From Patescibacteria group bacterium (GTDB taxonomy: Bacteria; Patescibacteriota; Patescibacteriia; UBA1558; GWA2-36-10), in contig JBAYIR010000001.1 of NCBI GenBank assembly GCA_041665505.1, forward strand, positions 147,108-211,107: a stretch of 64,000 nucleotides of DNA, written 5' to 3'. Position numbers and translations under genes: made by a program. This document shows, in pieces, positions 6,623 to 37,387 of this stretch. Under the pieces are notes generated by a model. It searched no databases and was not told the DNA's origin. It worked only from the letters and a program-made list of their open reading frames with translations. Numbering within the stretch: position 1 is the stretch's first letter; the number at the start of each line of letters is the position of its first letter.

Positions 6623-6652
6623 ACATACTTCCCTCTCAGAGGGGAAACAACA

Positions 6653-6688
6653 CCGGGACGTTTGAAAGGGCGTCCCGGTTTTCTATTT
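6653..6688 (+). terminator. Intrinsic terminator of cassette 1
   Basis: An 8-bp stem CCGGGACG/CGTCCCGG with a 10-nt loop is followed by TTTTCTATTT. A small hairpin CCCTC-tca-GAGGG precedes it. Confidence 0.7.
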
Positions 6689-6711
6689 GCTAAAATCTGG
6701 ACTTATATTTA

Positions 6712-6745
6712 TCAATCAAAAAATCCGCTAGTTTAGCGGATTTAA
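6712..6745 (-). terminator. Intrinsic terminator of dus (overlaps its stop codon)
   Basis: On the minus strand, the hairpin AATCCGCTA-aac-TAGCGGATT is followed by TTTTTTG. The stop TAG lies inside the stem. Confidence 0.6.
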
Positions 6746-13975: not shown

Positions 13976-14033
13976 TAATTATTTTATAATCAACTATTTA
14001 TTAGCTTTTGAGATATAATAGTAGATTTTTTTG

Positions 14034-14062
14034 TTGACAAAAAATTTCATAAACTATAAAGT
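14034..14062 (+). promoter_or_regulatory. Promoter of cassette 2 unit a (TTGACA ... TATAAA)
   Basis: TTGACA at 14034-14039 is followed 15-17 nt later by TATAAA/TAAAGT. The RBS GGAGGA lies ahead of the ATG at 14129. Confidence 0.45.
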
Positions 14063-14128
14063 ATTTTAGCGTCCCTAGGCTCTTGATTCCTTCCCGCGTG
14101 TGACTCTCACTGAACTGGAGGACTTAGC

Positions 14129-14596
14129 ATGAGCAACATCGTAGGTAGTCCCTTGTTGCAGCGCATTACTGGCTGCTCAACCGACATTGCCACCGCCGCT
14201 CAGCAGGCGGTGGAGAGCCTAATGAAGCATCTTCAAGTTGGCACTTTGGTGCCTGGAAGCTGGAAGCTCTACTGGGCGCCGGAGTACTACAAGGACCCCA
14301 AACTTGAGTACGCTAGTGTCTTTAAGGTAGAGATCATTCTGACCATTCAGGCTCAGGCGGGTAGCCTCCCGCCACAGGACTCGCGGCAGTGGTTCGTAAG
14401 CGAGATCATCGCCTCTGATGATCGTAGCGACAGAGCCATGATGGCCGCCGTGCAGCAGGCTACTGCTGTGATGGTCGAGCACGGCCTCAACGAGAATGAG
14501 TGTCAGAGTCTCATTCTCTGCTACACCAAGGACAACAAGGTCTACTGCTCCTTCTGGCTGTTCTACTACGCCGAGCAGGAAGTGGACTGTCACTGA
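14129..14596 (+). CDS. Hypothetical 155-aa protein (high-GC cassette 2)
   Basis: The ORF is GC-rich and has a GGAGGA RBS with a 7-nt spacer. It is followed by the terminator GGAGGCAGCAC-tgcg-GTGCTGCCTCC. No family is recognised. The antisense ORF 14219-14593 is judged spurious. Confidence 0.5.
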   Translation: MSNIVGSPLLQRITGCSTDIATAAQQAVESLMKHLQVGTLVPGSWKLYWAPEYYKDPKLEYASVFKVEIILTIQAQAGSLPPQDSRQWFVSEIIASDDRSDRAMMAAVQQATAVMVEHGLNENECQSLILCYTKDNKVYCSFWLFYYAEQEVDCH

Positions 14597-14623
14597 GTTT
14601 TGATCCCTCAGCGGATCGTTTTA

Positions 14624-14658
14624 GGAGGCAGCACTGCGGTGCTGCCTCCTGCCTTTTA
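14624..14658 (+). terminator. Intrinsic terminator of cassette 2 unit a
   Basis: An 11-bp stem with a 4-nt loop is followed by TGCCTTTTA. Confidence 0.65.
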
Positions 14659-14693
14659 CTTAATTTTAATTATAGTATTTTGTGTTTATTTAG

Positions 14694-14721
14694 TTGACAA
14701 AAAACTTATTTTAGGTTAATT
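14694..14721 (+). promoter_or_regulatory. Promoter of cassette 2 unit b (TTGACA-16-TTAATT)
   Basis: TTGACA lies at 14694-14699. The -10 element is weak. Confidence 0.35.
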
Positions 14722-14778
14722 TCTTTGGGCTTAGTGTTATTTCACAGTTGACTAGGACTCCAACGAAAGGATTCGAGC

Positions 14779-15093
14779 ATGTCCAAGCGTATGGTGGTTG
14801 TTCAACACAGCCATGTTATTGGAGTGTGTTCTGGTACCGTCAGAGTTGAGCGTCTGGAAAATGCTCAGACTGGCGTCCGTTTCAGGTTGAAGATTGGCAG
14901 TGAGCGTTCTGTCAGTAGCCCTGACATCGCAGAGCTGACCAGCTGTCTCAAAGACCAGGTCTTTGCTCGCCGTGTGAGCCAGGCTTTTACTATGGAGGCG
15001 CCGACTATTTCTTCTCTTCGACCAATGCTTCCCAAGTTCAAGGTGAAGTTCTTAGCCACGAAGGCTCGCCGTGACGAGGATCTGTTCGATTAA
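14779..15093 (+). CDS. Hypothetical 104-aa protein (high-GC cassette 2)
   Basis: The ORF is GC-rich with an AGGA RBS. No family is recognised. Confidence 0.45.
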   Translation: MSKRMVVVQHSHVIGVCSGTVRVERLENAQTGVRFRLKIGSERSVSSPDIAELTSCLKDQVFARRVSQAFTMEAPTISSLRPMLPKFKVKFLATKARRDEDLFD

Positions 15094-15115
15094 ATGTAAA
15101 AAATGGAGGAACTCC

Positions 15116-24091: not shown

Positions 24092-24781
24092 TTAAAAAAG
24101 TGCTTCTATTATTTCAAGGGCTTTTCTATTTGGCTGGTCAGTAATAATTTTTTTAGCATCGGTAATCGTCATCCATTTTGTGTTATGGAATTCTTTGGAG
24201 TCAACATTAAAATTGACACCGTCGGTTTCCATTCCATACCAAATATCGTAATGAGTCTTACAGGGCTGCACTTTATTTTCAATAGGAGTAATTGTGAGTA
24301 AAAATGGTAGTGGCAACTCTGAAAAATGATTCCTTACTCCAAGTTCTTCATCTATCTCTCGATTTAGTGTTTCCAAAAGTTCTTCACCTTTATCAATGTG
24401 TCCGCCGGGTGAAAGCCAAAGACCAGATTTTTTGTGATGAACAATAAAAACTTGTTTAGTCTTGGGGTTGTAAGGCAAAAAGTACGCGCAGAAATGAGTT
24501 TGTGGATTTTCATCTCTTGTGAAAACGCCTGCTTCTAATCTTTTTAAAAAACTTAAATGAGTCTGTTTGCTATCACAAATTGGGAGATTTATGATTTTTG
24601 TTATTTGGTCGTATAGCATATTTTTTAACTTATTATAATTTAAGTATACCAAAAAATCGCCTTTAGGGCGATTTTTTAGATGTTGGCTCCCCTTCGTGGA
24701 AGAGTTCAGAACTCTTAACTGGGTTAGCATTAAAAGCGAACTTGAATTTAGTGGCATATTAAATCTTTTTACTGTGCCCAT
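24092..24781 (-). CDS. Nudix hydrolase
   Basis: A perfect Nudix box is present: GHIDKGE-x7-REIDEELGV. Confidence 0.75.
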   Translation of the reverse strand: MGTVKRFNMPLNSSSLLMLTQLRVLNSSTKGSQHLKNRPKGDFLVYLNYNKLKNMLYDQITKIINLPICDSKQTHLSFLKRLEAGVFTRDENPQTHFCAYFLPYNPKTKQVFIVHHKKSGLWLSPGGHIDKGEELLETLNREIDEELGVRNHFSELPLPFLLTITPIENKVQPCKTHYDIWYGMETDGVNFNVDSKEFHNTKWMTITDAKKIITDQPNRKALEIIEALF

Positions 24782-25335
24782 AACCTCTCGGTAAAATCAG
24801 ATAATTTTTCTGATAATGGCTCAATTCTTTTTAACCCATTCTTTATGATTGTTGGAGTTATTTTTAACTTTCTGAAATTTATCAGGCCATCAATTTTATT
24901 TGTTTTTACACTAACTCTTACATAACCATCTTTATCAAGAGTATACCATTTGGCGTGTGCTATTTTATTTCTCAAGACACATAAGTTATCAAGTTTATTT
25001 CTAAATTCTTTAATTTGAAGCAATTTTTGTTCTTTTCTCTTCTCCGCACAACATACTAATGGATAAACCAAATCATAGAAAAGTTCAATTTTTGATGAAA
25101 AATCTAAATTTTTTAATACCGCATATCCAGTGTCGTGTGAACCGTGACCCAATAATTCGGCAATTTCAATATCAAGTGTATGTTCGAGATTGCTGAATTC
25201 TATTAGGAATTTACCGATAAGAGGTGCATACTTATCTCTTTTTTTATACATCAAATCTTCATCAATATAATCATATTGGTCCAATCTTTCCAATTTTGTT
25301 TCTAAATCATTTTTGGGCTTAGCTCTTTTTTTCAT
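24769..25335 (-). CDS. HEPN-like protein (Rx4H motif), possible Abi/RNase
   Basis: The C-terminal LRNKIAHAKW matches the HEPN Rx4-6H signature. The gene overlaps the Nudix gene by 13 nt, so the two are co-transcribed. Confidence 0.4.
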   Translation of the reverse strand: MKKRAKPKNDLETKLERLDQYDYIDEDLMYKKRDKYAPLIGKFLIEFSNLEHTLDIEIAELLGHGSHDTGYAVLKNLDFSSKIELFYDLVYPLVCCAEKRKEQKLLQIKEFRNKLDNLCVLRNKIAHAKWYTLDKDGYVRVSVKTNKIDGLINFRKLKITPTIIKNGLKRIEPLSEKLSDFTERLWAQ

Positions 25336-25395
25336 AAGTGGCTTAATTTATTGTATTTTAACATAACTTAGTGTAAAGTAAAGTAAATTAGTAAT

Positions 25396-26667
25396 ATGAC
25401 TGTGCAGAAAAAAGAAACGTTTAAATACGAAGAAAAATCATACTATAAGCCTTTTGATTATATAAATAAAGACCTTGATTTGCTATTTATACTTATTTTC
25501 ATTGAAGAATTCAAGAGACAGAATAACGAACTTAACTTTGGCAATTTCTTTAAGGGTAATTACTGGGACATTGACCAAGTCAACGACGAGGTTATGGATA
25601 CAAATGATTATCAATCTGTGTCCGATATGGTACTTGAACAAGCCCTCTTCATCTTTGAGGATATAAGAATAGGTAAAATTATTGAAGTTGGCATTGATAA
25701 TACTGATGAATCTATTAAAGATTTACTTGTTGAAGTTGCAAAAATAGGGCCAGAGAATGCCAAAAAAGATGCACCAAACTATTATTATCCTTTTGAACAA
25801 CTATTTTTTATCGCTAACCAAGAACGAGAGGTAAGGCTAAAACAATTAGAACAAAATCCCGATTTAGATATAGGGATATTCTTAAAAGATAAAAGCGTCT
25901 TTTTCACTAAAGAGCACGGCTATTTCCGCGCCCTCCAACCTTTCATTATTGATATTCCGACACATATATTGATTAGGGTTAAATATAACGCAACAAAAAT
26001 AAAAGAAATTGAAAAAGAAATTTTTGATTATTTAGAAGATTTTTCTAATGATAAATATATAGAAAAATTGCCTCGCTATCAGGAAAAAAGATTGTATTTT
26101 GCTCAACAAATTGAAAATTTTTATCGTTATGTGAGCCGATTAAATTTAATTGGCGATACTATAAATATACCTTTTACCATTCTTAATGAGAGTGGTTTTG
26201 AAACAGTAAAAATACTTAGATTTTTAGAATTAAAAGAAGTTATAAAGATAAGATGGTCTGATGAAGGTTCTTGGAAGGTTCAATTTACTAAACTACCAAT
26301 TACTCCAGAAAGTTTATTGGGTATAAAATCAGAAAATGCTAAAACTTATACCAGTCTTAAGTCTGGCTTAGCTTATGATGAAACTAGCTCCACATTAACT
26401 ATTGGCGAATATAATATAAAAATAAATGGTCCAGACCAAAAAGATTTTATTAGAATTATTTTTAAGAATCAAAAAGAACTTAATAAAGAGTGGTTTTTTT
26501 CAGAAATTTGCGAGATATTTGACCCTGCGATGGATAATAATGATAAGAAGTTCTATAATGCGTCCTATCAGGTCAATCTAAAAATTGCTCAAAAAACTCT
26601 AATAAAAGATTTCCTATTAACAACAAAACATAGTGTTAGGGTTAATCCAAAATATATAAACAGCTAA
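25396..26667 (+). CDS. Hypothetical protein (423 aa)
   Basis: The ORF is long and AT-rich with no recognised family. A terminator hairpin plus TTTTTT lies at about 26686-26720. Confidence 0.5.
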   Translation: MTVQKKETFKYEEKSYYKPFDYINKDLDLLFILIFIEEFKRQNNELNFGNFFKGNYWDIDQVNDEVMDTNDYQSVSDMVLEQALFIFEDIRIGKIIEVGIDNTDESIKDLLVEVAKIGPENAKKDAPNYYYPFEQLFFIANQEREVRLKQLEQNPDLDIGIFLKDKSVFFTKEHGYFRALQPFIIDIPTHILIRVKYNATKIKEIEKEIFDYLEDFSNDKYIEKLPRYQEKRLYFAQQIENFYRYVSRLNLIGDTINIPFTILNESGFETVKILRFLELKEVIKIRWSDEGSWKVQFTKLPITPESLLGIKSENAKTYTSLKSGLAYDETSSTLTIGEYNIKINGPDQKDFIRIIFKNQKELNKEWFFSEICEIFDPAMDNNDKKFYNASYQVNLKIAQKTLIKDFLLTTKHSVRVNPKYINS

Positions 26668-26886
26668 GCCAACTTAGACCATTGATTTGATAACCTGTAG
26701 GTATAACAACCTACGGGTTTTTTATGCAGGAAATTGGCACAGACAAAAATATAGATACAAATCTTAAAATTAAAGACCTTCCTCTTGAGGATGGGCAGAA
26801 TTTGGTTAATGTTTTTGTTTGGCTTATCCAAGAAGATAAGAAGCAAAACCCTGAATTTTATCAATTTAATAAGCAAGAATAAATAT

Positions 26887-27999
26887 ATGATTGACACAAT
26901 ATGCCTTTTAATTCCTAAAGAAAATATGATTTATCTCTCGGGAGTAGCTACTTGGGAACTTTATTCTAAAACCGACCAATACGAAAAATATGTACGTAAT
27001 CCTAGTAAAGCAGAAAAAGAGACTGGTAAATACTTTCCTAGACTAACTGGGTACAAAAGACGCTACTCCCAAGATGCGAATGTTCGTATAGAATTTTCGG
27101 CTCCTAAGCTACTATACTTAAACAACTTGGATGAATTAGAAGATAAGGATTTTCCGAAAATAATTGAGGTCTTACAAGAAAGATTGGAAACTATGGGAGT
27201 AAGGGTTTTTAAGGTTATTCTTGAAAATGCCTGCGTAAGTTCAGTTCATTTTTCAAAAAATATCTTACTTCAAGACGGCTATACGTCAAATCATTTAATA
27301 TCAGAAATGAGTAAAATTGACCTCCGTAAAAACTTTGATTTTGCCAAAACTAGATTTATGAATGATGGTCAGAGCCTCTATGCTCATACAACTGCTCACC
27401 AATTTGTTATTTATGACAAAATAGCCGACCTCAACAAAGACAAAAAACGAGCAATTGATAAGGAACAAACAGGTTATCAAAGAAGTCTATTTGATGAGCT
27501 AAAAAAGGAAACGCAAGAAATAATACGTTTTGAAATCAGAATAAACCACAAACAAAAATTAAATAAACTTCTTGAGAGTTTTGGTTATAGGAAAAATCCA
27601 GTTTTTAAACAAGTATTTAATTCGGAAATGAGCCAGAAAATCGTTACCGATTATTGGGTAAAGCTTATTAAAAAAAGAAATCTTGGTATTTTTTCAATAT
27701 CATTGAGCCTAAAGGATGCCCTGCAAACATTATTTTTAGCAGATAAAACACTAAAACCTAAGCAAGCGGTTTATTTACTAGGACTTTTTATGCTAGCTAG
27801 AGATGAAAATGGTATACGACAACTACGGACTATCGTTTCAAAAAGGGCACGTGATAGGACTTGGTATCGTATAGCAAATGATATGCAACTGGCTAGTGAG
27901 TTAATCACTAAAAATAAAATTAGAGATTGGGTCACACAAATCGATAAAAATTTAGAAAATTATAAACCCTATAAAAGAAAAGATTATGAAAATAAATAA
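26887..27999 (+). CDS. Hypothetical protein, possibly a replication-initiation (Rep_trans-like) protein of the mobile element
   Basis: The start is moved to the ATG at 26887 (MIDTICLLIPKE...). The family assignment is weak and by eye only. Confidence 0.45.
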   Translation: MIDTICLLIPKENMIYLSGVATWELYSKTDQYEKYVRNPSKAEKETGKYFPRLTGYKRRYSQDANVRIEFSAPKLLYLNNLDELEDKDFPKIIEVLQERLETMGVRVFKVILENACVSSVHFSKNILLQDGYTSNHLISEMSKIDLRKNFDFAKTRFMNDGQSLYAHTTAHQFVIYDKIADLNKDKKRAIDKEQTGYQRSLFDELKKETQEIIRFEIRINHKQKLNKLLESFGYRKNPVFKQVFNSEMSQKIVTDYWVKLIKKRNLGIFSISLSLKDALQTLFLADKTLKPKQAVYLLGLFMLARDENGIRQLRTIVSKRARDRTWYRIANDMQLASELITKNKIRDWVTQIDKNLENYKPYKRKDYENK

Positions 28000-28180
28000 A
28001 AATAAGATTAGCACTATTGAGCGGTTTCAGAAAGGTATGAGATTATCCCTCAAGCAGTATTATAAACAAGCTTTTTCTGAACGAGTTAAGAAAGGTTTGA
28101 TGGTAAAAAATAAGAAAAAATTATCCACTTTTGATTAAGTTGCAATGTAAAGCAGAGTAAAGTATAATGAACACAACAAT

Positions 28181-28699
28181 ATGTTGGTAGATAGCATACA
28201 AAAATACATATCATTGTATGATGCTGAAAGATATTTGTTTGAAGTTCTTGGTCCAAAGATAAGGGAGAACGGCTACATAACTTTCAAAGATTTTTATGAT
28301 ATATGTATGTGGAAATCAGCTAGGCAGAAACAAAATTATTTAAAGAATAAAGATGTAGTTGAAGAGATTACAAGAAAAGCATTGAATCAGAGTGATGAGA
28401 TTGATAGAATAAATACTTTACGTCAATTAAAAGGTGTTGAGATAAAAACAGCATCAGCAATTTTAACAATCATTTTTCCAGAGAAATATGCCGTTATGGA
28501 TGAGAGGTGCTTGGATATATTGATAGATTATGGTTTTCGGATTAGCAAATATCCGACTATTAAAACTTGGATACAATACATAGGAATAATGAGAAGTTTG
28601 GCCAAAGAAAATAATGTTAGCCCTAGAGAATTAGATATGGCCTTTTTTGCAATACATAGGGAAAAGTTAGAAAAGGCAAATTTTAAAAACTTATATTAG
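28181..28699 (+). CDS. Hypothetical protein (172 aa)
   Basis: The ORF has typical composition and sits within the element gene block. Confidence 0.45.
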   Translation: MLVDSIQKYISLYDAERYLFEVLGPKIRENGYITFKDFYDICMWKSARQKQNYLKNKDVVEEITRKALNQSDEIDRINTLRQLKGVEIKTASAILTIIFPEKYAVMDERCLDILIDYGFRISKYPTIKTWIQYIGIMRSLAKENNVSPRELDMAFFAIHREKLEKANFKNLY

Positions 28700-28705
28700 T
28701 AAATT

Positions 28706-28888
28706 ATGATAGCAAAAGAAAAAGATTTTTATAAAGCAGAAGACTTGGCCCGAGTATTAGAGGTAAACATTATGACAATTTACCGATATATAAAAGCAGG
28801 TCGACTAAAAGCATACAAAATAGGCCGTGAGTTTCGGATTGATAAAGCTGATTTTCAATCTTTCTTAAAAAAAGTTAGTACAAAATAG
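28706..28888 (+). CDS. Excisionase/MerR-like helix-turn-helix DNA-binding protein
   Basis: MTIYRYIKAGRLKAYKIGREFRI is a motif of the Xis-type HTH_17 family. Confidence 0.55.
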   Translation: MIAKEKDFYKAEDLARVLEVNIMTIYRYIKAGRLKAYKIGREFRIDKADFQSFLKKVSTK

Positions 28889-28890
28889 TT

Positions 28891-30678
28891 ATGACCGAAA
28901 GAGAATTATTACAACAAAAGGAGAACCATATTCTCAAACTTGAAAAAGAAATTGAGAAATGGAAAAAAGCAGTTAAAACTCAAAGATATGGTTTAGTATG
29001 GCTTGATGTGCCCGAAGCGTTTGAAGATGATGTTGAGAACAAATTGCCAATTCTTGAGGAAGTACCTAAAAAAGCTATAAAAAGTATAGACGAAAAACCT
29101 ACACATTTACTCATTGAGGGAGATAACTATCACGCACTTACTTGTTTGAATTACACACACAAAGGAAAGATAGATGTTATTTATATAGACCCACCATACA
29201 ACACGGGTTCGGATGGTTTTAGATATAAAGATAAAAGGATATTAGACCAATATCCCGATGGTACTGAAGTACCAAAAGACCATCCTTTTAGGCATAGCTA
29301 CTGGTTGTCTTTTATGAGTAAAAGATTGGAACTCGCAAAAAGTTTATTAAAAGATACTGGAACTATATTTATTTCAATTAACGAAGACGAATTCGCACAA
29401 CTAAAGTTACTTTGTGACAGAATTTTTGGTCTAGAAAATTATTTGACAATGTTTACTATTAAAGTACGGCACGAGGAGCGTATTCTCAAGGGGGATAAAG
29501 ATTTTCACGAGGTGGTTGAATATCTTTTATTGTACAGAAATTCATCTAACTATAAAACTATAAAAAAAATATATGATAATACTTCTCTAGATGAATATGT
29601 ATATCAGATTATTGAAAAAATAAAAAAACCTAAATCAGTTAAGCTTGGAAATAAAATAGTTGAGTATTTTGAACCATCGCAATATGAAATAAAAAAAGTT
29701 CCAGCAAGTGCAGATAATTTGAAAAAAATAAACATTCGGGGTTCTTTGAAAGAAGGAAATAGTAGTGGCAGATTTTATATGAATTATATCGCTTCTAGGG
29801 GCACTAAGGGAGTGTTGTATAAAGTGCCTAATATGGGAGCGGATAAGTTTGGTTATAGGTATTTTTTGATACCAGCTAAGGAAAATAGATTAAATGGAGA
29901 TTATTTTCAAGGCGTGCCTTTAGATATACAAGATACCAAAGAAGTGCCATATCCTAACTATTTTGACCTTGAAAAAGAGTTTAATAATGTTGGATATGAG
30001 GGAGGTGTTAATTTTGGAGGTGGAAAGAAACCTATAGATTTCCTTAGGCATTTTATTAACATTGGCTCTTTAAATAAAGATGCAATCATATTAGATTTTT
30101 TTGCTGGTTCAGGAAGTACAGGGCACGCAGTTATGCAGATGAATGAAGATGATGAAGGTCATAGGCAGTTCATTTTAGTCACAAATAATAATGAAATTGT
30201 AAAAGATAAAGTTTACCACCCAATGTCTGAAGCGTGTCTACCAAGAATAAAGAATGTGATTAAGGGTTATGATAAAAATCCAAGTTTGGGAAATTCAATC
30301 AAATACTATAAAACTTCTTTTGTTGGTAAACATAACATTCTTGATGCGGATGATAAGGATAAAATACAACTTGCTCATCACGCAGGCGAAATGCTTGCAA
30401 TAGCTGAAAATACCTTAGAGCAAATAAAGAAAAACGACTATTGGCAGATATTTGAAAATACAAACAGAATGACAGCTATATATTTCCGAGAAGAACAAGA
30501 TAGACTTGATGAATTTGTGAAAGAAGTTTTAGCACTCAAAAAACCAGTAACGGTGTATATGTTTAGTTGGGAAGAAAAGGTTGAAATTATCGATTTTGAA
30601 GACATTCACAACATAAGCCTAAAAACTATACCTCAGCCAATTCTTGAAATATATAAGCAGATATATAACATTATTTAG
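28891..30678 (+). CDS. mod: Type III R-M DNA methyltransferase (Mod, N6-adenine/N4-cytosine beta-class)
   Basis: The DPPYNTGSD motif (motif IV) precedes FFAGSGSTGHA (motif I), the circularly permuted order typical of Mod. The gene is followed by a Res helicase gene. Confidence 0.8.
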   Translation: MTERELLQQKENHILKLEKEIEKWKKAVKTQRYGLVWLDVPEAFEDDVENKLPILEEVPKKAIKSIDEKPTHLLIEGDNYHALTCLNYTHKGKIDVIYIDPPYNTGSDGFRYKDKRILDQYPDGTEVPKDHPFRHSYWLSFMSKRLELAKSLLKDTGTIFISINEDEFAQLKLLCDRIFGLENYLTMFTIKVRHEERILKGDKDFHEVVEYLLLYRNSSNYKTIKKIYDNTSLDEYVYQIIEKIKKPKSVKLGNKIVEYFEPSQYEIKKVPASADNLKKINIRGSLKEGNSSGRFYMNYIASRGTKGVLYKVPNMGADKFGYRYFLIPAKENRLNGDYFQGVPLDIQDTKEVPYPNYFDLEKEFNNVGYEGGVNFGGGKKPIDFLRHFINIGSLNKDAIILDFFAGSGSTGHAVMQMNEDDEGHRQFILVTNNNEIVKDKVYHPMSEACLPRIKNVIKGYDKNPSLGNSIKYYKTSFVGKHNILDADDKDKIQLAHHAGEMLAIAENTLEQIKKNDYWQIFENTNRMTAIYFREEQDRLDEFVKEVLALKKPVTVYMFSWEEKVEIIDFEDIHNISLKTIPQPILEIYKQIYNII

Positions 30679-30679
30679 T

Positions 30680-33055
30680 ATGAAAAACTTTAACCCATTA
30701 CAATTTCAAAAAACTGCCGTAGAAAATCTTACAGATATATTTATTTCGGTATGGAAGCAACAAGGCAGGCAATTGCCCATTGTTTTGAAATCACCAACTG
30801 GAAGTGGTAAAACGTTTATAACATCACTTTTTGTTCGTGGCCTTAACCATTTACCACAATGGAAAGAAGATAAGGCATTTATTTGGATTACTTTTAGTGA
30901 TGATTTGGCTATGCAGAGCAAAGGAAAATTTCTTGAGTATTTTGAAAATATGCTTGAAAATAGAACTTTAACTGTTGCAGATATAAATCAAGGCAAACTT
31001 TATCCAAATGATATTTTATTCTTGAACTGGCAAAAAGTAATAGCAAAAAATGCAGAGACAAGATTAATTCGTCGTCCAGAAGATGAGGAATGGGCAAAAG
31101 AAACTGGTAAGTACTTTGAAGATGTGATTGAACAAACTCAAGCAGATGGTAGACAAATCATTTTAATTATTGATGAAGCTCATAAAAATAAAGATACAAA
31201 ACTAGCAAAGGACATTATTGATAAAATTGACCCTAAAGTAATTCTTCACATTACAGCAACACCAAATGAAGCGGACGAGCTAAATTCTCGCCGTCTTGGT
31301 AGTTATTATGAAGTTCCAAGAAAAGAGGTAGTTGAGCAAGGGCTAATCAAAGAAGCGATTGTCACTCAAACAGAAGAAGATTTTCAGGGTATGTCAGGCA
31401 AAGACCTTGATGAAATTCTTCTTGAAAATGGAATAAATAAACGAGAAGAGTTAAAAGCCGAATTTAGTGCACTTGGAAAAAATATAAATCCCTTGATGTT
31501 GATACAGATACCAAATGATGATAGTAAACTAATTGAAAAAGGTGAACAAACAAAGGAAGAAATTGTTATAGATTATCTTATTAAGATGAAAGTGCCTAAA
31601 CATAAAATTGCCAAATGGTCTAAGGGACAAGATAAACCAAAAGGACTAGAAGACAATGATGATGAACACGATTTTCTTATTTTTAAACAAACTGCTGGTA
31701 CTGGTTGGGATTGTCCTCGTGCATCTGTACTTGTGATGTTTAGAGAAATACAATCAAATACTTTTTATACTCAAACGGTTGGACGTATTTTGAGAATGCC
31801 AGAACCTCAAGCTAGGGAAGATTATAAAAATAATCCTAATCTTCGCTTGGGTTATTTATATACAAATTATAAACGTAAGGAAGTGGTTATACCAGACCAA
31901 AATCCTGCAAATAAACCACTAACAGAAACTGCCCATCGGAAAAATGGTATAAATAATATAGAGTTATCTTCAGATTATATCTCTCGTTTGGACTACGGTG
32001 ATATTCGCGTATCATCAAAATTTCAAGAGGTATTTAAAACAGAGCTTAATAAACATTTTGGAATTACAAGTAGTGATATTTTAGGTAAAGCTGAAATAAA
32101 GTTAAAAAAAGCAGGCTTAGACCTGACAGATACTTTAGTAAATGAAGTTATAGCCAATGCTCGTTTTGAGGATTACGACAATCTCGCCTTTGATTTTAAA
32201 AAGAAAGGTAGCGATGTTTCTCTTGAAATGTCGGTAAGTGATATTGAAAAAACTTTTAATTATCTTTGTTACCAAATTTTAAAAGAACAAGAAGATAGTA
32301 AGGCTAAATACTCAAATGTTGCTCGTTCTTGGTCGGTGCTAAAACAAGCACTTCGTGTTTGGTTTAAAACTGTTTTAAAAGATGACCATATTTATTGGTA
32401 TAAGATATTTATTAAAGATGTTCGTAAGGGTGCAGAAAGTAAATTTCGTCCAGCAATAACAAAAGCACTTAGAGCTTATAAACCAATATCAGACAGTTTG
32501 CTTGTTGAAAAGAAAAGGAAAGTGGAAGAAAAAGAGTCATATATTTTTACCATACAGAATGAGTATCAATACCCAGAAGATTATAAGATTGTGCCTCAAA
32601 AATTATGTGTCTTAGATAAATTTTATTTACCCGAAGATTATAATGGGCGTAAAAATGAAATTGCTTTTGTTGAGTATCTAGAAAAGAAGAAAGGGAAGAT
32701 TGATTGGTGGTTCAAAAACGGCAATCAAGGTAAAAAATATCTTGGTATTAAATATACAAACTCATCCACAAAAGAAGAAGACTTGTTTTACCCTGATTGG
32801 ATTATTAGTTTTTCAGATGGTCGTATAGGTATTTTTGATACAAAAAAGGGTAATACATTGTTCGATTTTGGAACACCAGAAAAGGCAGATGCACTACAAA
32901 AAAAACTTAGGGTATTTGGCAAAAAGTTTATAGGTGGCATTGCCTACCAAGAAGGAGTTATTTGGTATTACAATGACAGTCCAAAATACTCTTTTAAGGA
33001 AGGAGAATCAGTAAATGACAATAAGCAATGGAAGCCTTTTGAAGATTTATTTTAA
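30680..33055 (+). CDS. res: Type III restriction enzyme Res subunit (SF2 helicase/nuclease)
   Basis: Walker A (PTGSGKT) and a DEAH box (IIDEAHKN) are present. The protein is large and lies downstream of mod. The start is moved to the ATG at 30680. Confidence 0.75.
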   Translation: MKNFNPLQFQKTAVENLTDIFISVWKQQGRQLPIVLKSPTGSGKTFITSLFVRGLNHLPQWKEDKAFIWITFSDDLAMQSKGKFLEYFENMLENRTLTVADINQGKLYPNDILFLNWQKVIAKNAETRLIRRPEDEEWAKETGKYFEDVIEQTQADGRQIILIIDEAHKNKDTKLAKDIIDKIDPKVILHITATPNEADELNSRRLGSYYEVPRKEVVEQGLIKEAIVTQTEEDFQGMSGKDLDEILLENGINKREELKAEFSALGKNINPLMLIQIPNDDSKLIEKGEQTKEEIVIDYLIKMKVPKHKIAKWSKGQDKPKGLEDNDDEHDFLIFKQTAGTGWDCPRASVLVMFREIQSNTFYTQTVGRILRMPEPQAREDYKNNPNLRLGYLYTNYKRKEVVIPDQNPANKPLTETAHRKNGINNIELSSDYISRLDYGDIRVSSKFQEVFKTELNKHFGITSSDILGKAEIKLKKAGLDLTDTLVNEVIANARFEDYDNLAFDFKKKGSDVSLEMSVSDIEKTFNYLCYQILKEQEDSKAKYSNVARSWSVLKQALRVWFKTVLKDDHIYWYKIFIKDVRKGAESKFRPAITKALRAYKPISDSLLVEKKRKVEEKESYIFTIQNEYQYPEDYKIVPQKLCVLDKFYLPEDYNGRKNEIAFVEYLEKKKGKIDWWFKNGNQGKKYLGIKYTNSSTKEEDLFYPDWIISFSDGRIGIFDTKKGNTLFDFGTPEKADALQKKLRVFGKKFIGGIAYQEGVIWYYNDSPKYSFKEGESVNDNKQWKPFEDLF

Positions 33056-33058
33056 TTT

Positions 33059-34654
33059 ATGAAAGCAATAAATGTCTCAAGAGTATCAACCGAAGAACAA
33101 AAAGAAGCTGGTAATTCTTTGCCTGCTCAGATTGAACGTGTAGACGCTTATTGTAAGAGAAAAGATTTTGAAGTTATTAAATCTTTTAGTTTTGATGAAA
33201 GTGCTTATAAAGATAAGCGAGATGAGTTTGATAAACTACTTGAGTATGTTCAAAAAATAGCCACAAAGGAAAAGGTGGCTGTTTGTTTTGATAAAGTAGA
33301 CAGACTTTCAAGAAGTGTATTTGATAAGAGAGTTGCCGTATTTTATCAAATGGCTTTAGAAGATAAAATAGAGTTGCATTTTGTTTCAGACAATCAAATC
33401 ATAAACGGAAAATTATCGGCAACAGAAAAAAGTGGATTTGGTATGAGCCTTGTAATGGCTAGTTACTATTCAAATGCAATAAGTGATAATGTTAAGAGAG
33501 CATTTGAGCAAAAAAGACGTAATGGAGAATGGACAGGGCAAGTACGCTTAGGGTATTTAAACGTTAGTTTAGACCAAGCAAAAAGATTACGCAAAGACAT
33601 TATCATAGACCCAGACAAAGGGCATCTTATACAGAAAATGTTTGAACTCTATGCTACTGACCAATACTCTTTGAAAACCTTGCAAATTAAAATTAGTGAG
33701 CTTGGTTTGAGAACTCGCTATGGAAATAAACTTTCATTAAGTGGCATAGAAAAAATCATTAAGGACAGTTTTTATTGTGGTATTGCTATGTCAACAAAGT
33801 ATGGTTCTTATGCCCATAAATATCCTCGTTTAATATCAAGAGAACTCTTTGATAAGTGCCAACAGATACGCACCAAACGCAATAAAATGCCCTATAAGGC
33901 ACACTCTAAGGACTTTATGCTAAAAGGCCTGTTAAGATGTAATAATTGTGGTTGTTTAATGAGCCCTCAAAAACAGACTAAGAAAAGTGGACTTGAATTT
34001 ATCTATTATACTTGTACGAATGCCAAAGGTATATGCAAAAAAATATATATACCAGAAAAAGACCTTTTAAAACCAATCTATGATGTTTTAGAAAGATTTG
34101 AGAGTATAAGTGAGGAAGTACAGAATGGTCTTGTTGAGGAATTACGCAAATGTACCGAAATAGAAGTAGTATTTCATAAGGCACAAATAAATCGTATTCG
34201 AACAGATTATGATAATTTAAAAGCGAAGCAAAATAGACTTCTTGATGCATTTTTAGACCAGAGTATTACTAAGGACATCTATGACAAGAAACATCAAGAG
34301 TATCAAGACCAAATACAAACTTTAGAAATTGAAATGTCTGAACATCAGAAAGCAGATTTTGATTACAAAACTACTGTCGCTACAGTCATTTCCGTAGCAC
34401 GCAGAGCAAAAACTATATTTGAAAATAGTTCTGAAGTTGCTGGAAAAAGAACATTTTTGAGTTACATACTTCAGAACCCGATTGTAACAGGTAGAATACT
34501 TACCTTTGACCTCAAAAAACCCTTTGATTTAGTGCTAAGTCTTGCTGATAACCAAAGAAAAAAGACTATCGTTTCTGATAGTCATCTTTCTTGGCTCGGG
34601 GACAGGGATTCGAACCCCGGTTGGCTGGACCAAAACCAGCTGTCCTACCACTAG
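33059..34654 (+). CDS. Large serine recombinase (integrase)
   Basis: The N-terminal resolvase domain carries the catalytic Ser (NVSRVSTEEQ). A recombinase domain, a zinc ribbon (CNNCGC...YYTC) and a coiled coil follow. The last roughly 63 nt overlap the tRNA-Gln on the opposite strand. Confidence 0.85.
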   Translation: MKAINVSRVSTEEQKEAGNSLPAQIERVDAYCKRKDFEVIKSFSFDESAYKDKRDEFDKLLEYVQKIATKEKVAVCFDKVDRLSRSVFDKRVAVFYQMALEDKIELHFVSDNQIINGKLSATEKSGFGMSLVMASYYSNAISDNVKRAFEQKRRNGEWTGQVRLGYLNVSLDQAKRLRKDIIIDPDKGHLIQKMFELYATDQYSLKTLQIKISELGLRTRYGNKLSLSGIEKIIKDSFYCGIAMSTKYGSYAHKYPRLISRELFDKCQQIRTKRNKMPYKAHSKDFMLKGLLRCNNCGCLMSPQKQTKKSGLEFIYYTCTNAKGICKKIYIPEKDLLKPIYDVLERFESISEEVQNGLVEELRKCTEIEVVFHKAQINRIRTDYDNLKAKQNRLLDAFLDQSITKDIYDKKHQEYQDQIQTLEIEMSEHQKADFDYKTTVATVISVARRAKTIFENSSEVAGKRTFLSYILQNPIVTGRILTFDLKKPFDLVLSLADNQRKKTIVSDSHLSWLGDRDSNPGWLDQNQLSYH

Positions 34655-34665
34655 ACGATCCCCGA
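34592..34665 (-). tRNA. tRNA-Gln (anticodon UUG)
   Basis: The minus-strand read is TCGGGGATCGTCTAGTGGTAGGACAGCTGGTTTTGGTCCAGCCAACCGGGGTTCGAATCCCTGTCCCCGAGCCA. It has a 7-bp acceptor stem (U1-A72), an anticodon stem GCTGG/CCAGC with loop TTTTGGT, a T-loop TTCGAAT, discriminator G and an encoded CCA. Confidence 0.8.
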
Positions 34666-34795
34666 ATATTGTATAAAACAAAAAAATTATAGTATATATT
34701 TAATTTTTAGTCAATGGAAAGAGGACCCCGAGACGCTATGTAGCATCATGTATTCGGGGCCCCCTTGTCGGTCAGCTGGTTGTCCTAGCTAGTAG

Positions 34796-35029
34796 CTAGT
34801 CCAGCCAGCTATCGCCGGTCGGATCGCAGCAGTTGTCTTCCATCATGATCTGCCAGATGCAGATCCAACCGAAGCGGTTGAAGCCGAACTCGAGTGCCAG
34901 GTCGCATCCCCAGGGCATGAGCCCACCGGCGTGGGCAGTCCGGGGCACCGTGGCGATACCCAGAGCCGTGATCAGGGTAATGGTCGCGAGGACCCTCCCG
35001 ATCTTCTTTTTCAGGCTTTTCGGAAACAT
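34796..35029 (-). CDS. Small secreted Cys/Trp-rich peptide precursor (77 aa; predicted 43-aa mature peptide)
   Basis: A Sec-type signal peptide (MFPKSLKKKIGRVLATITLITALGIATVPRTAHA|GG) is present. The mature part GGLMPWGCDLALEFGFNRFGWICIWQIMMEDNCCDPTGDSWLD contains 4 Cys. An RBS-like GAGGG lies 5 nt upstream. The gene sits in high-GC cassette 3. Confidence 0.45.
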   Translation of the reverse strand: MFPKSLKKKIGRVLATITLITALGIATVPRTAHAGGLMPWGCDLALEFGFNRFGWICIWQIMMEDNCCDPTGDSWLD

Positions 35030-35110
35030 GGTTTCCCTCTCTGTGGGGTGTGGTGTTGTGGCTGTTTACCACAACAAGTTAGCCGGAGTCTTATCCTCCT
35101 CTCTGGTAAA

Positions 35111-35776
35111 CTATTTGAAGTCTACCTTGACACGGTGATCTTCCACCACCAGTTTGTCTGTGGTGGTTACCCTCAAAACCTCCATGCCGAAGTAGGAGCT
35201 TGGTAGCCTCACCAGAACCACGTTAGGCAGGTCGGGTGAAGCACCTTTGTTGAACTTGTTGTCCATTCTGACTGGACCATCGCGGGTGTCTTTCCAATCA
35301 TCGGACGGACGATGTTTCTTGATGCAGATGATGCCGATATCCGGTACCTGGATTTCGCTGCCATCACCACCTCTGATGGTAAAGATCAATGCTCCAACCT
35401 CGTTGAAGAGTAGGTCAACTTGGTCAGGAATATACACACCAAGCCTGTAGACTATGACCTGCTCGCGTGCCAATGTGGCACTCAATTTGAGACTGGGTAT
35501 CTCATCGACCATGATTTCAAGCTGCTCTTTGATAAACTCTACCCGTTCTTCTCGTTGTAGTCTACGACCTCTTTGCCTTTCTTCTATTTGGATGGCCGTG
35601 CCAAGTTGAGGTTTCAGGTTATCGATGGGCCTGCTCCAGCTTTCATTGTAGCCAGAGAAGATCAGGACACCATCAGGAGTCTGGTTGATAGGAACGAAGT
35701 TGGCCTTGGCTTGTGCAACTGTGCTAGCGAGTAGCATCAGGCCGAGACACGCGAGAAACATGAATGTGTTTCGCAT
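35111..35776 (-). CDS. Hypothetical secreted protein (221 aa, Sec signal)
   Basis: The signal peptide MRNTFMFLACLGLMLLASTVAQA is present. The ORF is GC-rich. Its start overlaps the upstream stop (TAATG), so it is translationally coupled to the lipoprotein gene. Confidence 0.55.
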   Translation of the reverse strand: MRNTFMFLACLGLMLLASTVAQAKANFVPINQTPDGVLIFSGYNESWSRPIDNLKPQLGTAIQIEERQRGRRLQREERVEFIKEQLEIMVDEIPSLKLSATLAREQVIVYRLGVYIPDQVDLLFNEVGALIFTIRGGDGSEIQVPDIGIICIKKHRPSDDWKDTRDGPVRMDNKFNKGASPDLPNVVLVRLPSSYFGMEVLRVTTTDKLVVEDHRVKVDFK

Positions 35777-36057
35777 TAGCGATTACCTCTCTGCGGGTTA
35801 GGGTTCTTCGCATCCAGATTCTTGGTGTTGAAGACCGAGTTCTGGACTCTTGCTTCTGCATCAGCAATAGCTTCGCAACGCCAGGTGCCGTCTTTGTTGA
35901 CACACCGGTAGCTCTTACCATCTACAACGAAGACCTTGGTACTGTCAGGGATGACAGTGGTGTCACGAAACTGTGGGTGGTAGCTGTAACCACAACCAGT
36001 GATTAAGACCAGCATCAGGATGACGCCGATCAATTTGACGACGATTTTTTCAAACAT
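35776..36057 (-). CDS. Hypothetical lipoprotein (93 aa)
   Basis: A lipobox LITGC follows the hydrophobic N-terminus. A strong RBS AAGGAGG lies 6 nt upstream of the ATG. The gene is first in the operon. Confidence 0.55.
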   Translation of the reverse strand: MFEKIVVKLIGVILMLVLITGCGYSYHPQFRDTTVIPDSTKVFVVDGKSYRCVNKDGTWRCEAIADAEARVQNSVFNTKNLDAKNPNPQRGNR

Positions 36058-36139
36058 GCGGCGCCTCCTTAGTGGCGTTTTGCTTGGCGTTTTGCTCTTA
36101 CTGCGATTCGTGTTGTTAGAGAACTGTTATGCTAATTTC

Positions 36140-36190
36140 ATTATACATAAAATAACACTTAATTCAAGTATATTTCTTTATTTTTGTCAA
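36140..36190 (-). promoter_or_regulatory. Promoter region for the lipoprotein operon (minus strand): TTGACA, then TTGAAT-16-TATAAT
   Basis: On the minus strand, TTGACAAAAATAAAGAAATATACTTGAATTAAGTGTTATTTTATGTATAAT is present. A roughly 75-nt leader contains the tandem 11-bp repeat GCAAAACGCCA x2. Confidence 0.45.
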
Positions 36191-36202
36191 TAGATAAGTT
36201 AT

Positions 36203-36285
36203 GAAAATAAAGGTGGGGCTCGTCACACAACTGGGGGGAGTGTTGAAGTGACGAGCCCCGGTCTGCCCTCTAGGGGCAGTTTTTT
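36203..36285. terminator. Bidirectional intrinsic terminator between the two cassette-3 transcription units
   Basis: A 12-bp stem GGGGCTCGTCAC...GTGACGAGCCCC (36215-36259) is followed on the minus strand by ACCTTTATTTTC. On the plus strand, CTGCCC-tctag-GGGCAG is followed by TTTTTT (36263-36285). Confidence 0.6.
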
Positions 36286-36334
36286 GGTAGCTCTATACAG
36301 CTACGCAAGAGAAGACAATAAGACTAGTGTCTGG

Positions 36335-36400
36335 CTACTTCCTGAGCCACCAGAACAGATCCAGGAGCGCCAGCCCCATGAAGATCACTTCGTAATGCAT
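36335..36400 (-). CDS. Putative 21-aa hydrophobic micro-protein (MHYEVIFMGLALLDLFWWLRK)
   Basis: A perfect SD AAGGAGGTG lies 5 nt upstream of the ATG. One predicted TM helix. It sits between the receiver-like gene and the terminator. It is not in the ORF track because it is under 60 aa. Confidence 0.3.
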   Translation of the reverse strand: MHYEVIFMGLALLDLFWWLRK

Positions 36401-36449
36401 TATGCCACCTCCTTTCATACAATGGGAGTCTCACCCCCCAGTTGTATGA

Positions 36450-36854
36450 TCAGTGGTTGGCCATGCTCAACTGGTGAACGTAGTCAACCAGACGACCGAC
36501 ATTGAGCGGTTTGGGCATACAGAAGACCCCATACTCGCTCATCAGCCGTTCGATCTTGGTGTTGGGGTAGCGGTGGCTCATAGCCAGGGTGGTGATGTGC
36601 ACGCCAGCAGAGGTGAGAATCTCCATGAACCTCTCACTGTCGACATCCAGACACTCGATGATGATCACGTCAGGCAGAGGATCCCAGTTCAGCATCTTGC
36701 GGATCACCTTCGTGGTGTCGAGTTGAGCTCTGTAGATCTGGCCGTCAACCTGCTCGATGTTGGTCAGGACTTCATGTCCTTCGGACTCCAGGCCAAAGGC
36801 CATGGTCATGGCCGTATCCGGGTCGCTGTCGAAGATGAAAACGCGCTTCTTCAT
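36450..36854 (-). CDS. Stand-alone CheY-like receiver (REC) domain protein, atypical
   Basis: The N-terminal acidic pair is VFIFDSDPD. A KP motif (FCMPKPL) and a Thr (HITTLA) occupy the expected positions. The phospho-acceptor position appears to be Glu in DVIIIE (alignment by eye). An RBS AGGAG is present. The plus-strand ORF 36453-36872 is judged an antisense artefact. Confidence 0.4.
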   Translation of the reverse strand: MKKRVFIFDSDPDTAMTMAFGLESEGHEVLTNIEQVDGQIYRAQLDTTKVIRKMLNWDPLPDVIIIECLDVDSERFMEILTSAGVHITTLAMSHRYPNTKIERLMSEYGVFCMPKPLNVGRLVDYVHQLSMANH

Positions 36855-36875
36855 GGTTTTGCTCCTAGCTGAAGT

Positions 36876-36943
36876 GTCGGTTACGCTACTGGCTCAGGAT
36901 TGTCCAAGCGTCCAAATACAGACAATCCGTCTTCGCCTCACTC
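36876..36943 (+). repeat. Cassette-3 direct repeat copy A (about 67 bp, internal 7-bp dyad GATTGTC-N16-GACAATC)
   Basis: GTCGGTTACGCTACTGGCTCAGGATTGTCCAAGCGTCCAAATACAGACAATCCGTCTTCGCCTCACT. It lies 22 nt 5' of the REC gene start when read on the minus strand. Confidence 0.7.
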
Positions 36944-36974
36944 AGTCTCTCCTGTGTCGCCGATGAAGCTGATT

Positions 36975-37145
36975 TCAGTCAGACAGGCCTTTCTGTAGGG
37001 CTTTGGCCAGTTCATCTTCGTTCAGGTGACGCGTCGCAAACCTGACCTGCCGATACAATACCTTGGTATCGTAGTCCAGGTTTTCGTTGAGCCGGGCAAT
37101 GTGCTCTTGCACAATCTTGATATTCCGCCGGTGTTGGGGGCTCAT
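36975..37145 (-). CDS. Hypothetical 56-aa protein (MSPQHRRNIKIVQEHIARLNENLDYDTKVLYRQVRFATRHLNEDELAKALQKGLSD)
   Basis: An RBS AGGGAG lies 11 nt upstream of the ATG. The ORF-track start at 37178 is rejected. It is preceded by repeat copy B and an extended -10 (TGTTATACT). Confidence 0.35.
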   Translation of the reverse strand: MSPQHRRNIKIVQEHIARLNENLDYDTKVLYRQVRFATRHLNEDELAKALQKGLSD

Positions 37146-37223
37146 AGTATTCACACTCCCTGTTTTTGGGTAACACAAAACACCTCAAAGAGGCGTTTTG
37201 GCTAAGTATAACACAGCAAAAGT

Positions 37224-37290
37224 GCCGGTTACGCTACTAGCTCCAGATTGTCCAAGCGTCCAGATACAGACAATCCTTCTTCGCCTCACT
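37224..37290 (+). repeat. Cassette-3 direct repeat copy B
   Basis: GCCGGTTACGCTACTAGCTCCAGATTGTCCAAGCGTCCAGATACAGACAATCCTTCTTCGCCTCACT. It is about 90% identical to copy A. Confidence 0.7.
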
Positions 37291-37387
37291 GCTTCTCTTA
37301 TTTTGGTAAAGAACTTAGTTTACAAAAAAATACCCTTTCAGGCATTTCTGTAAATTAAGCTCTCAATATTGAGATTTATTACGCAAT

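Follow-up and report, generated by a model that had tools for sequence, protein, structure and literature searches.

How does a recombinase gene come to end inside a tRNA? The question is raised by a 64,000-nucleotide stretch of a Patescibacteria group bacterium genome (contig JBAYIR010000001.1 of assembly GCA_041665505.1; the whole of this stretch is called the window in what follows), in which the gene of a large serine recombinase (LSR) runs through nearly all of a tRNA-Gln gene on the opposite strand. The evidence described below leads to the answer, given here a probability of about 90%, that window positions 24690-34597 are an integrated small mobile element, that the attachment site of this element (attP) lies within the LSR gene, and that it targets the tRNA at its 3' tip. 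The locus belongs to a large family of integrative elements that carry restriction-modification (R-M) systems across the Candidate Phyla Radiation (CPR), a family that is apparently undescribed. The two genes in question are the following:

33059-34654, plus strand: LSR (integrase), with Resolvase, Recombinase and Zn_ribbon_recom domains
34592-34665, minus strand: host tRNA-Gln(UUG), intact, B' arm of the attachment site (ARAGORN, Rfam)

Judged by its domain architecture, the 531-residue product of open reading frame (ORF) 33059-34654 is a bona fide LSR. The Pfam families Resolvase (PF00239, E = 8.6e-19, residues 7-158), Recombinase (PF07508, E = 1.4e-14) and Zn_ribbon_recom (PF13408, E = 2.9e-9) are all recognised, the serine nucleophile motif is present as R8-V-S10-T, of which R8 and S10 are invariant across an alignment of 41 sequences, and the AlphaFold2 (AF2) model of a homologue (P0017) has long helices of the coiled-coil type at residues 367-456. 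The frame has neither frameshift nor internal stop and retains the residues that are invariant in the family. The best NCBIfam matches are CcrB, XisF and CcrC. Identity to phage integrases that have been characterised does not exceed 27%, and no entry of the phage collection is more than 34% identical. The tRNA-Gln, the sole tRNA of the window, scores 58.8 bits against the Rfam tRNA model (threshold 29) and is full-length after integration, its encoded CCA included (ARAGORN and Rfam); it is thus an intact gene and not the pseudogene that the initial annotation had considered as a possibility.

The two genes share 63 nt (tRNA bases 34592-34654), and this read-through, together with the last residues that had been quoted for it, is exact when checked against the DNA and its translation. 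The C-terminus of the LSR reads ...SHLSWLGDRDSNPGWLDQNQLSYH before the stop codon. Residue W512 is encoded by TGG, the reverse complement of the tRNA-encoded CCA, and the codon of L513 (CTC) spans the end of the acceptor stem together with the discriminator G; residues 1-513 are encoded by the element, and the last 18 (514-531) are nothing but antisense tRNA. Chance does not account for the overlap, since the same abutment on a tRNA is found in other genomes at 51 of the 80 related loci that were fetched.

The C-termini of related proteins suggest what the end of the gene looks like when it is not joined to a tRNA. The homology search returned 1,613 proteins (E <= 1e-10), and C-termini were compared in the best 120, which are 67-79% identical and come from Patescibacteria or CPR-type metagenomes. 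Throughout these 120 the conserved body ends ...ASPFNLVLELADSPNWL (...SPNWL), and what follows is of two kinds. The majority either end after NWLRG or run on into peptides translated antisense from the 3' half of several different tRNAs (RGQDSNLRPID, RERDSNPRPIG, PGSDSNRRPIG, GDLDSNQD..LSYH). A minority have a common tail that is not derived from a tRNA, LP(L/F)VD(K/A)FRTxNWxxIKxELQFSGI..., or its VEDVRT/VDDFRT variants. The existence of these two classes suggests that the 3' end of the LSR gene contains the attachment site, and that the class with the tail is the unintegrated form.

The features that define the two junctions in the window are, from left to right:

24654-24677, minus strand: hairpin and U-run in the host flank (B arm), most simply the displaced terminator of tRNA-Gln (RNA fold)
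24683-24689, plus strand: core of the left junction (attL), TTGGCTC, identical to the core of the right junction (attR)
24684-24794, plus strand: detached native integrase tail WLPFVEEFRTLNWVSIKSELEFSGILNLFTVPITSR with its stop codon, comprising the P' arm of attP and the remaining tail (six-frame pattern search)
34564-34583, minus strand: replacement terminator-like hairpin and U-run (terminator scan, RNA fold)
34591-34597, plus strand: attR core TTGGCTC, whose reverse complement GAGCCAA is tRNA positions 71-76 plus one base
34686-34714, minus strand: promoter-like site of the tRNA, TTGACT, 17 nt, TATAAT (11/12 matches), outside the element

The left end of the element can be located because the native C-terminal codons of the LSR (about 35) sit there, detached from their gene. 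A profile hidden Markov model (HMM) of native tails scores the frame at 24684-24794 with E = 1.5e-13, and the detached tail is an open frame of 36 codons that closely matches the tails of the attP form. The two copies of the 7-bp direct repeat TTGGCTC, at 24683-24689 and 34591-34597, are identical, and with this sequence at both junctions the element measures 9,908 bp. The initial annotation had looked for the left boundary at 24.0-24.1 kb, about 0.6 kb too far to the left. From these junctions the host site (attB) is predicted to read ...GATTTTTTAGATG-TTGGCTC-GGGGACAGGG..., and attP is predicted to read ...CATCTTTC-TTGGCTC-CCCTTCGTGGAAGAG....

An attP can be rebuilt from the window out of the sequence to the left of the attR core, the core itself and the sequence to the right of the attL core, and then compared with free forms. 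The 90%-identity cluster of the window LSR includes a protein of 547 residues (P0241; 513 + 34), encoded on a contig from another sample (L084), in which the native tail is attached; this contig runs from the LSR gene into homologues of the left-end genes of the element, with 93% DNA identity in the gene for a Rep-like protein. The rebuilt attP aligns unbroken to it, at 87% identity over 149 nt and with 24 identical nt across the junction. A sibling LSR (P0117) is found on 9,436-bp contigs from two samples (L081 and L082), each with terminal overlaps of 30 nt. The two contigs are exact rotations of each other, with 0 mismatches over 9,406 bp, and this rotation together with the terminal overlaps identifies a free circle, which carries a full-length LSR gene and no tRNA. 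A tRNA is likewise absent from the free-form contigs L083 and L084. The repeats, the contiguous attP of L084 and the sibling circles bear out the proposal, made from the window alone, of an integrated element of about 10 kb attached at the 3' end of tRNA-Gln. In other members of the family, contigs break at the junctions: two (L001 and L018) have their start exactly 127 nt ahead of the point where the attL core ends, and two (L004 and L007) break off at the core beside the LSR gene. We infer that these breaks are branches of the assembly graph, produced by mixed populations of occupied, empty or circular forms.

The crossover falls within the acceptor end, the discriminator and CCA, at the extreme 3' tip of the tRNA, and therefore the body of the tRNA is host DNA. 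What the element can contribute to the tRNA is limited to the CCA, the trailer and the hairpin of a replacement terminator. The earlier suggestion that the element possibly supplied the tRNA 3' end holds at most for these parts. The hairpin to the left of attL (24654-24677) has a folding energy of -17.8 kcal/mol (z = -4.0, with 0 of 200 shuffled sequences as stable) and is most simply the original terminator of tRNA-Gln, shifted by about 10 kb. [quoted passage not shown]

Relatives of the element occur in at least 280 species-level genomes, nearly all of them Patescibacteria (one genome per species was scanned); the few labelled as other phyla may be mis-binned contigs. The opposite-strand tRNA that abuts the LSR 3' end is Asn(GTT) at 42 of the 51 loci, Gln at 5, Asp at 2 and His at 2. 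About 15 further loci have an antisense T-loop motif at the expected place, some of these being intron-containing tRNAs under relaxed settings; native tails are present at 7 of the 80, and the remainder are contig ends. The same gene block without a recombinase, which the initial annotation had named as a possible refutation, was not found. The core of the attachment site throughout the family is GCTC(C), that is, the last bases of the acceptor stem and the discriminator G, followed by the first C of CCA (an automatic core finder was in the wrong register at about 8 loci, which were read by eye). Where the host tRNA gene lacks an encoded CCA, as at locus L011, the CCA comes from the P arm of the element. 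Elements of the family range from 5 to 11 kb, and their backbone proteins are about 70-80% identical between distant CPR lineages. The family is undescribed in the full-text literature searched, subscription-only papers lying outside that search.

Two side observations concern the breadth of the family. Several loci (L015, L026, L034, L053, L059 and others) have no tRNA under the default settings of ARAGORN, yet retain the antisense T-loop motif, and settings that permit introns call tRNA-like genes there whose inserts measure 40-100 nt; tRNA genes with introns may be targets as well. The closest LSRs in the phage collection INPHARED, 32-34% identical over 96% of the query, belong to two records from human faeces, MT837677.1 (6,409 bp) and MT836653.1 (9,264 bp). 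Both are unannotated, are named "Bacteriophage sp." and are similar in size to the elements described here, of which they may be distant cousins and not phages.

The detached tail is informative in its own right. Across the family, the HMM of tail remnants matches solely on the strand of the LSR gene, 5.4-11.2 kb upstream of the LSR end, at about 35 loci. A codon analysis was carried out on 22 gap-free tail segments, of which 20 are detached at attL and two are attached (L083 and L084). All 22 are free of stops for at least 24 codons. The first nine codons also serve as the P' arm of attP; past them the third codon position varies most, the entropy at codon positions 1, 2 and 3 being 0.88, 0.58 and 1.41. 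On this codon pattern, the detached tail is under purifying selection at the level of the protein, and the only reading that makes sense of such selection is that the elements are regularly excised with a full-length integrase. As a separate observation, two tail remnants lie upstream of a single LSR gene at three loci: L012 (positions 4550 and 5446), L033 (3755 and 4531) and L035 (3051 and 3732). At a fourth locus, L021, a remnant at 3272 is accompanied by an LSR with an intact tail at 11510. Such double remnants suggest tandem or successive integrations at the same tRNA.

The remaining genes of the element are listed here, their presence at the 80 loci having been scored by tblastn with the proteins of the window element:

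24769-25335, minus strand: accessory gene, 188 aa, weakly HEPN-like, variable (3/80 loci)
25396-26667, plus strand: 423-aa protein, semi-conserved, just upstream of the Rep-like gene
26887-27999, plus strand: backbone Rep-like gene, 370 aa from the likely start MIDTICLL (63/80 loci)
28181-28699, plus strand: accessory gene, 172 aa, weakly like helix-hairpin-helix (HhH) DNA glycosylases (0/80 other loci)
28706-28888, plus strand: 60-aa HTH_17/excisionase-family protein, backbone (62/80 loci)
28891-30678, plus strand: type III R-M methyltransferase Mod, cargo (N6_N4_Mtase, E = 5e-30; PADLOC MTase_III, E = 6e-63)
30680-33055, plus strand: type III R-M restriction subunit Res (helicase-nuclease), cargo (ResIII, E = 1e-18; PADLOC REase_III, E = 2e-13)

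The backbone protein that is called Rep-like (370/404 aa) is 47-81% identical among the 63 loci at which it is present. Its AF2 model (pTM 0.70) matches viral models of the BFVD in Foldseek with probability 1.00 and E = 1e-9 to 2.5e-6, the named matches being the Inoviridae "Replication-associated protein G2P" and "GST REP", and UniRef names one homologue "Replication initiation protein". On the fold matches and this name, and with moderate confidence, the 370-aa protein is a probable initiator of rolling-circle replication. An IYDK sequence is invariant in the family and resembles an active-site motif of rolling-circle replication proteins, and the conserved non-coding stretch at 28000-28180 may hold the origin. 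The gene described earlier as possibly Rep-like is a conserved backbone gene, and its likeness to a rolling-circle Rep, which rests on the fold, is held at that same moderate level.

The small helix-turn-helix (HTH) protein matches HTH_17 (E = 2.6e-12), TIGR01764 "excise" (E = 5.5e-12) and excisionase PHROGs, and is a candidate for a recombination directionality factor or for a regulator of the operon. These matches agree with the Xis-like HTH of the initial annotation, and the low GC content is also as described there; the type III R-M system is confirmed by the matches of Mod and Res in Pfam and PADLOC. The start of res is TTG at 30644 in the mechanically defined ORF, and the public gene call is of 791 aa. 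The gaps between the HTH gene, mod, res and the LSR gene are 2, 1 and 3 nt, and the four genes probably form one operon.

In the family, the space between the HTH and LSR genes is a cargo slot of 0-3 tightly packed, co-directional genes. At the 80 loci mod is present at 17 and res at 11, and R-M functions dominate a Pfam census of 106 slot proteins (N6_N4 methylase 22, C5 methylase 13, ResIII 13, D12 methylase 7), with further enzymes of the HindIII, HpaII, HaeII, BpuJI, Mrr and Eco57I types. The cargo of the free circles consists of MmeI-like and Tsp45I-type systems.

Among the accessory genes, the 188-aa protein has a weak match to HEPN_RiboL-PSP (E = 0.026) and another weak one to the HEPN region of Cas13c. 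Its gene lies inside the element; its supposed partner in a HEPN-like and Nudix pair, the Nudix gene (likely 24092-24619, minus strand), lies outside, just beyond attL, so that only half of that pair belongs to the element. For the 423-aa protein, searches of Pfam, PHROG, NCBIfam and PDB gave no match, and its homologues at 19 loci are full-length in 9 and consist of the C-terminal ~100 aa alone in 10. The 172-aa protein matches Ogg-HhH (E = 6e-4) and an N-glycosylase/DNA lyase model (E = 7e-9, below the curated cutoff).

The following mechanism can be proposed. The free form would be a circle with the Rep-like gene, the excisionase-family HTH gene, the cargo slot and the LSR gene, of which the HTH gene, the cargo and the LSR gene form a single tightly packed co-directional block. 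With attP placed within the last ~110 nt of its own gene, the LSR would exchange strands between attP and the 3' tip of the host tRNA. Integration leaves the tRNA sequence unchanged, moves its own terminator about 10 kb away and substitutes the hairpin and U-run of the element; at the same time it separates the LSR gene, which encodes 547 aa in the free form, from the codons of its last 34 native residues, which come to lie at the opposite end of the element, and excision would restore the full-length gene. Of this, the sequences themselves show the two junctions, the rebuilt attP, the free circles of sibling elements, the targeting of tRNAs across the family, the R-M slot and the conservation of the detached tail as protein. 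The exchange of tails may alter the activity or the direction of the LSR, the HTH protein may act as excision factor or regulator, and the Rep-like protein may replicate the free circle. The R-M cargo would protect the host and penalise loss of the element, the latter being the established idea of "selfish" R-M systems. Spread from cell to cell would take place by a route without recognised transfer genes.

A more far-reaching proposal is that the tail swap is a sensor of state, in which the conserved tail of the 547-aa form made by the free circle is required for, or tunes, the attP x attB reaction (or the stability of the enzyme) and the integrated form, tail-less and ending in meaningless antisense-tRNA residues, has another direction or activity until excision restores the gene, and that this phylum-wide family at tRNA tips is the main vehicle of R-M systems in the CPR. 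This proposal is put forward tentatively, and it may well turn out to be wrong.

Several observations count against the reading of the locus as a mobile element with an attP inside its integrase gene, and they are considered together here. The circle of the window element itself was not found in the collections searched, and the same holds for an empty site, the first check that had been recommended for this locus: neither the predicted attB (36 nt) nor the 72-nt tRNA-Gln had an exact match in JGI metagenome contigs, and exact-protein look-ups of the flanking ZIP and TerC proteins led only to the source contig, to a similar contig in which the site is occupied and to one of 4.5 kb that stops short of the tRNA. 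The 2-bp crossover can be placed only within GCTC, with a hint, from the GCTA of attP in L081 and from the end ...GGCT of contig L004, that it is GC or CT; the dyad symmetry of the attP arms is weak and does not locate the central dinucleotide. In the AF2 model of a full-length homologue the native tail has pLDDT < 50 and gives no structural clue to its role, and the activity of the integrated, tail-swapped LSR is putative. The assignment of the Rep-like protein depends on Foldseek TM scores of only 0.3-0.5 and on one automatic name, and nothing was found for it in Pfam, NCBIfam, PHROG, PADLOC or PDB (by sequence or by Foldseek). No Pfam domain of a relaxase, a coupling protein or a type IV secretion system is present in the ORFs of the element, whose transfer genes, if any, are unrecognised.

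Some of these points could equally be expected of a fossil, that is, of a former integrative element that has become fixed in the chromosome and whose LSR end is merely decaying. The missing circle and empty site fit this view, as do the integrated LSR without its native tail and a second assembly that holds the same integrated arrangement. Decay is, however, hard to see in a gene with no frameshift or internal stop and with its family-invariant residues in place, next to two identical 7-bp cores and a detached tail that is still an open frame of 36 codons matching those of live attP forms. An LSR that is 90% identical is in the attP form in another sample, and the contig breaks at the junctions of other members suggest mixed populations; the fossil is therefore unlikely. 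That the element is instead a prophage, either a filamentous inovirus-like phage or a phage satellite, is suggested by the Inoviridae Rep (G2P)-like proteins that are the best fold matches of the 370-aa protein, by a size of 5-11 kb that is within the inovirus range, and by inoviruses reported in CPR bacteria (PMC6813254). Against this, no Zot/pI ATPase, coat or other virion family was found in Pfam or PHROGs for the proteins of the element, the LSR family is missing from IMG/VR (2.9 million viral contigs), a tblastn search of 50,697 INPHARED phage records gave no match to the Rep-like protein, and the Rep, HTH, R-M and LSR genes fill most of the coding capacity. A prophage is thus very unlikely. 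Since it has no gene for a morphogenesis ATPase or a coat, is absent from IMG/VR, and has a Rep-like protein without match in PLSDB or INPHARED, the element is better termed a small integrative plasmid-like element.

Two other explanations were considered. The tRNA could be borne by the element, as in some phages, with the true attachment sites elsewhere, and the LSR frame, which spans nearly the entire tRNA, would then require the tRNA to travel along in order to stay intact. Yet the free forms L081, L083 and L084 have no tRNA, close relatives of the LSR abut at least four tRNA species, the native continuation of the LSR gene lies 9.9 kb to the left, and the promoter-like site of the tRNA is outside the element, all of which makes an element-borne tRNA scarcely credible. 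Just as implausible is the idea that the LSR regulates the R-M operon, for example as a phase-variation invertase, and that its position beside the tRNA is incidental. Some R-M loci are indeed under the control of recombinases, and the LSR gene has the same orientation as mod and res, with a gap of 3 nt; but the protein has the full LSR architecture with a zinc ribbon, unlike a small invertase, mod and res have no flanking inverted repeats, the same LSR is found beside unrelated types of R-M system and at times beside no cargo at all, and the locus is fully explained by the evidence on attL, attR and attP. The reading preferred here remains that of an integrated element with attP in its LSR gene and its target at the tRNA tip.

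Other features of the window lie outside the element. The Nudix gene beyond attL was considered as a synteny anchor for the empty site and was rejected for this use: its homologues (60-78% identical, in CPR bacteria) occur in unrelated neighbourhoods. These homologues lie repeatedly just downstream of differing tRNAs, Leu(TAG) and Ser(GGA) as well as Gln in the window (L087/L088, 7762-8531; L089/L090, 7411-8528), and the gene may be a relic or cargo of other elements that target tRNAs. On the opposite side, a GC-rich block of about 2.7 kb (34720-37300; ~50% GC against 32% in the genome) ends at the tRNA-Gln promoter and encodes small proteins that look secreted or lipoprotein-like and are without matches in Pfam. 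It was also considered as a part of the element and rejected, as it lies beyond attR and the tRNA promoter and varies independently between strains.

The GC-rich block is headed by three cyclic di-GMP-II riboswitch aptamers (RF01786; 36866-37461, minus strand; 65-72 bits, threshold 53.5), all within 600 nt. Two of them are in tandem upstream of a 67-aa ORF (36975-37178), and the third is 12 nt upstream of a 134-aa ORF (36450-36854). A JGI contig from another sample (L092; 3300037810, Ga0376277_0075593) is 99.9% identical to window positions 39006-37306, which hold Fur, ZIP and the first riboswitch, and then diverges, sharing just 251 nt of the block; within a single species, the island under riboswitch control therefore varies from strain to strain. 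Islands of ~50% GC are also found at 4000-7000, with a 737-aa multi-pass membrane protein (4409-6622) that has no Pfam match and a long overlapping antisense ORF, and at 14000-15100, with a 155-aa ORF (14129-14596) that has no match; Rfam has no convincing family in these two islands. An ordinary, full-length RNase P RNA of bacterial class A lies at 60064-60445 (minus strand, 218.5 bits).

CPR bacteria (Patescibacteria) account for a large part of the diversity of bacteria; their genomes are tiny, CRISPR is absent from most of them, and genetic manipulation is very difficult. The family offers a concrete route by which defence and methylation systems may move across them, with a cargo slot that brings a different R-M system each time. 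It unites a serine integrase with the targeting and regeneration of a tRNA, features that are usually separate, and an attP in the integrase frame ties the C-terminus of the enzyme to its state of integration; if true, the tail-swap sensor would be a new kind of direction control in LSRs. The short, near-universal attB at the end of tRNA-Asn and tRNA-Gln is a candidate tool for site-specific insertion into CPR genomes.

It is known that LSRs use short attachment sites with a very short core of identity, that their integration is unidirectional, and that excision normally requires a separate directionality factor. The LSRs of phages and islands (phiC31, Bxb1, A118, SPbeta SprA and SCCmec CcrB) have the same Resolvase/Recombinase/zinc-ribbon architecture, with long coiled-coil helices, as the enzyme of the window. 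Their target is a protein-coding gene or an intergenic site, whereas here it is the tRNA 3' tip, and attP lies inside the coding sequence of the integrase, so that its C-terminus changes on integration. To our knowledge, no characterised serine integrase exchanges its tail through an attP inside its own gene, and this arrangement was not found in the literature searched.

A closer parallel in terms of location is given by the tRNA islands of tyrosine integrases (P4-like; Islander/TIGER), which likewise use the 3' part of a tRNA, with the integrase gene adjoining it, the tRNA regenerated and a direct repeat (PMC4383910). The Islander abstract attributes integration into tDNA to tyrosine integrases (PMC4383910). 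The element described here differs in its serine enzyme and in an identity of 4-7 bp at tRNA positions ~71-76, not in the T-arm or the anticodon. The SSV1-type integrases of archaeal fuselloviruses, which are tyrosine enzymes, have attP in the integrase gene and a tRNA as target, and integration splits their gene into two substantial fragments; here, in contrast, the gene loses no more than its last ~35 codons, and a single ORF retains the catalytic and DNA-binding domains. In the mycobacteriophages BPs and Brujita, as Broussard and colleagues are said to have described in 2013, attP is in the 3' end of a gene whose C-terminus is changed by integration as a switch. In that integration-dependent immunity it is the repressor that is remodelled, through a tyrosine integrase, whereas here the integrase itself is remodelled.

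In lifestyle, the element of the window resembles the integrative and conjugative elements of actinomycetes (AICEs) of the pSAM2 type, with a form integrated in a tRNA and a circle of about 10 kb. AICEs are ~10-kb elements that alternate between a tRNA-integrated form and a free circle, which a rolling-circle Rep replicates, and they have genes of the xis and int types (PMC2440964). They use a tyrosine integrase and a Tra (FtsK-like) protein, whereas the element described here has a serine integrase, no recognisable transfer gene, a cargo that is nearly always an R-M system, and hosts that belong to the CPR.

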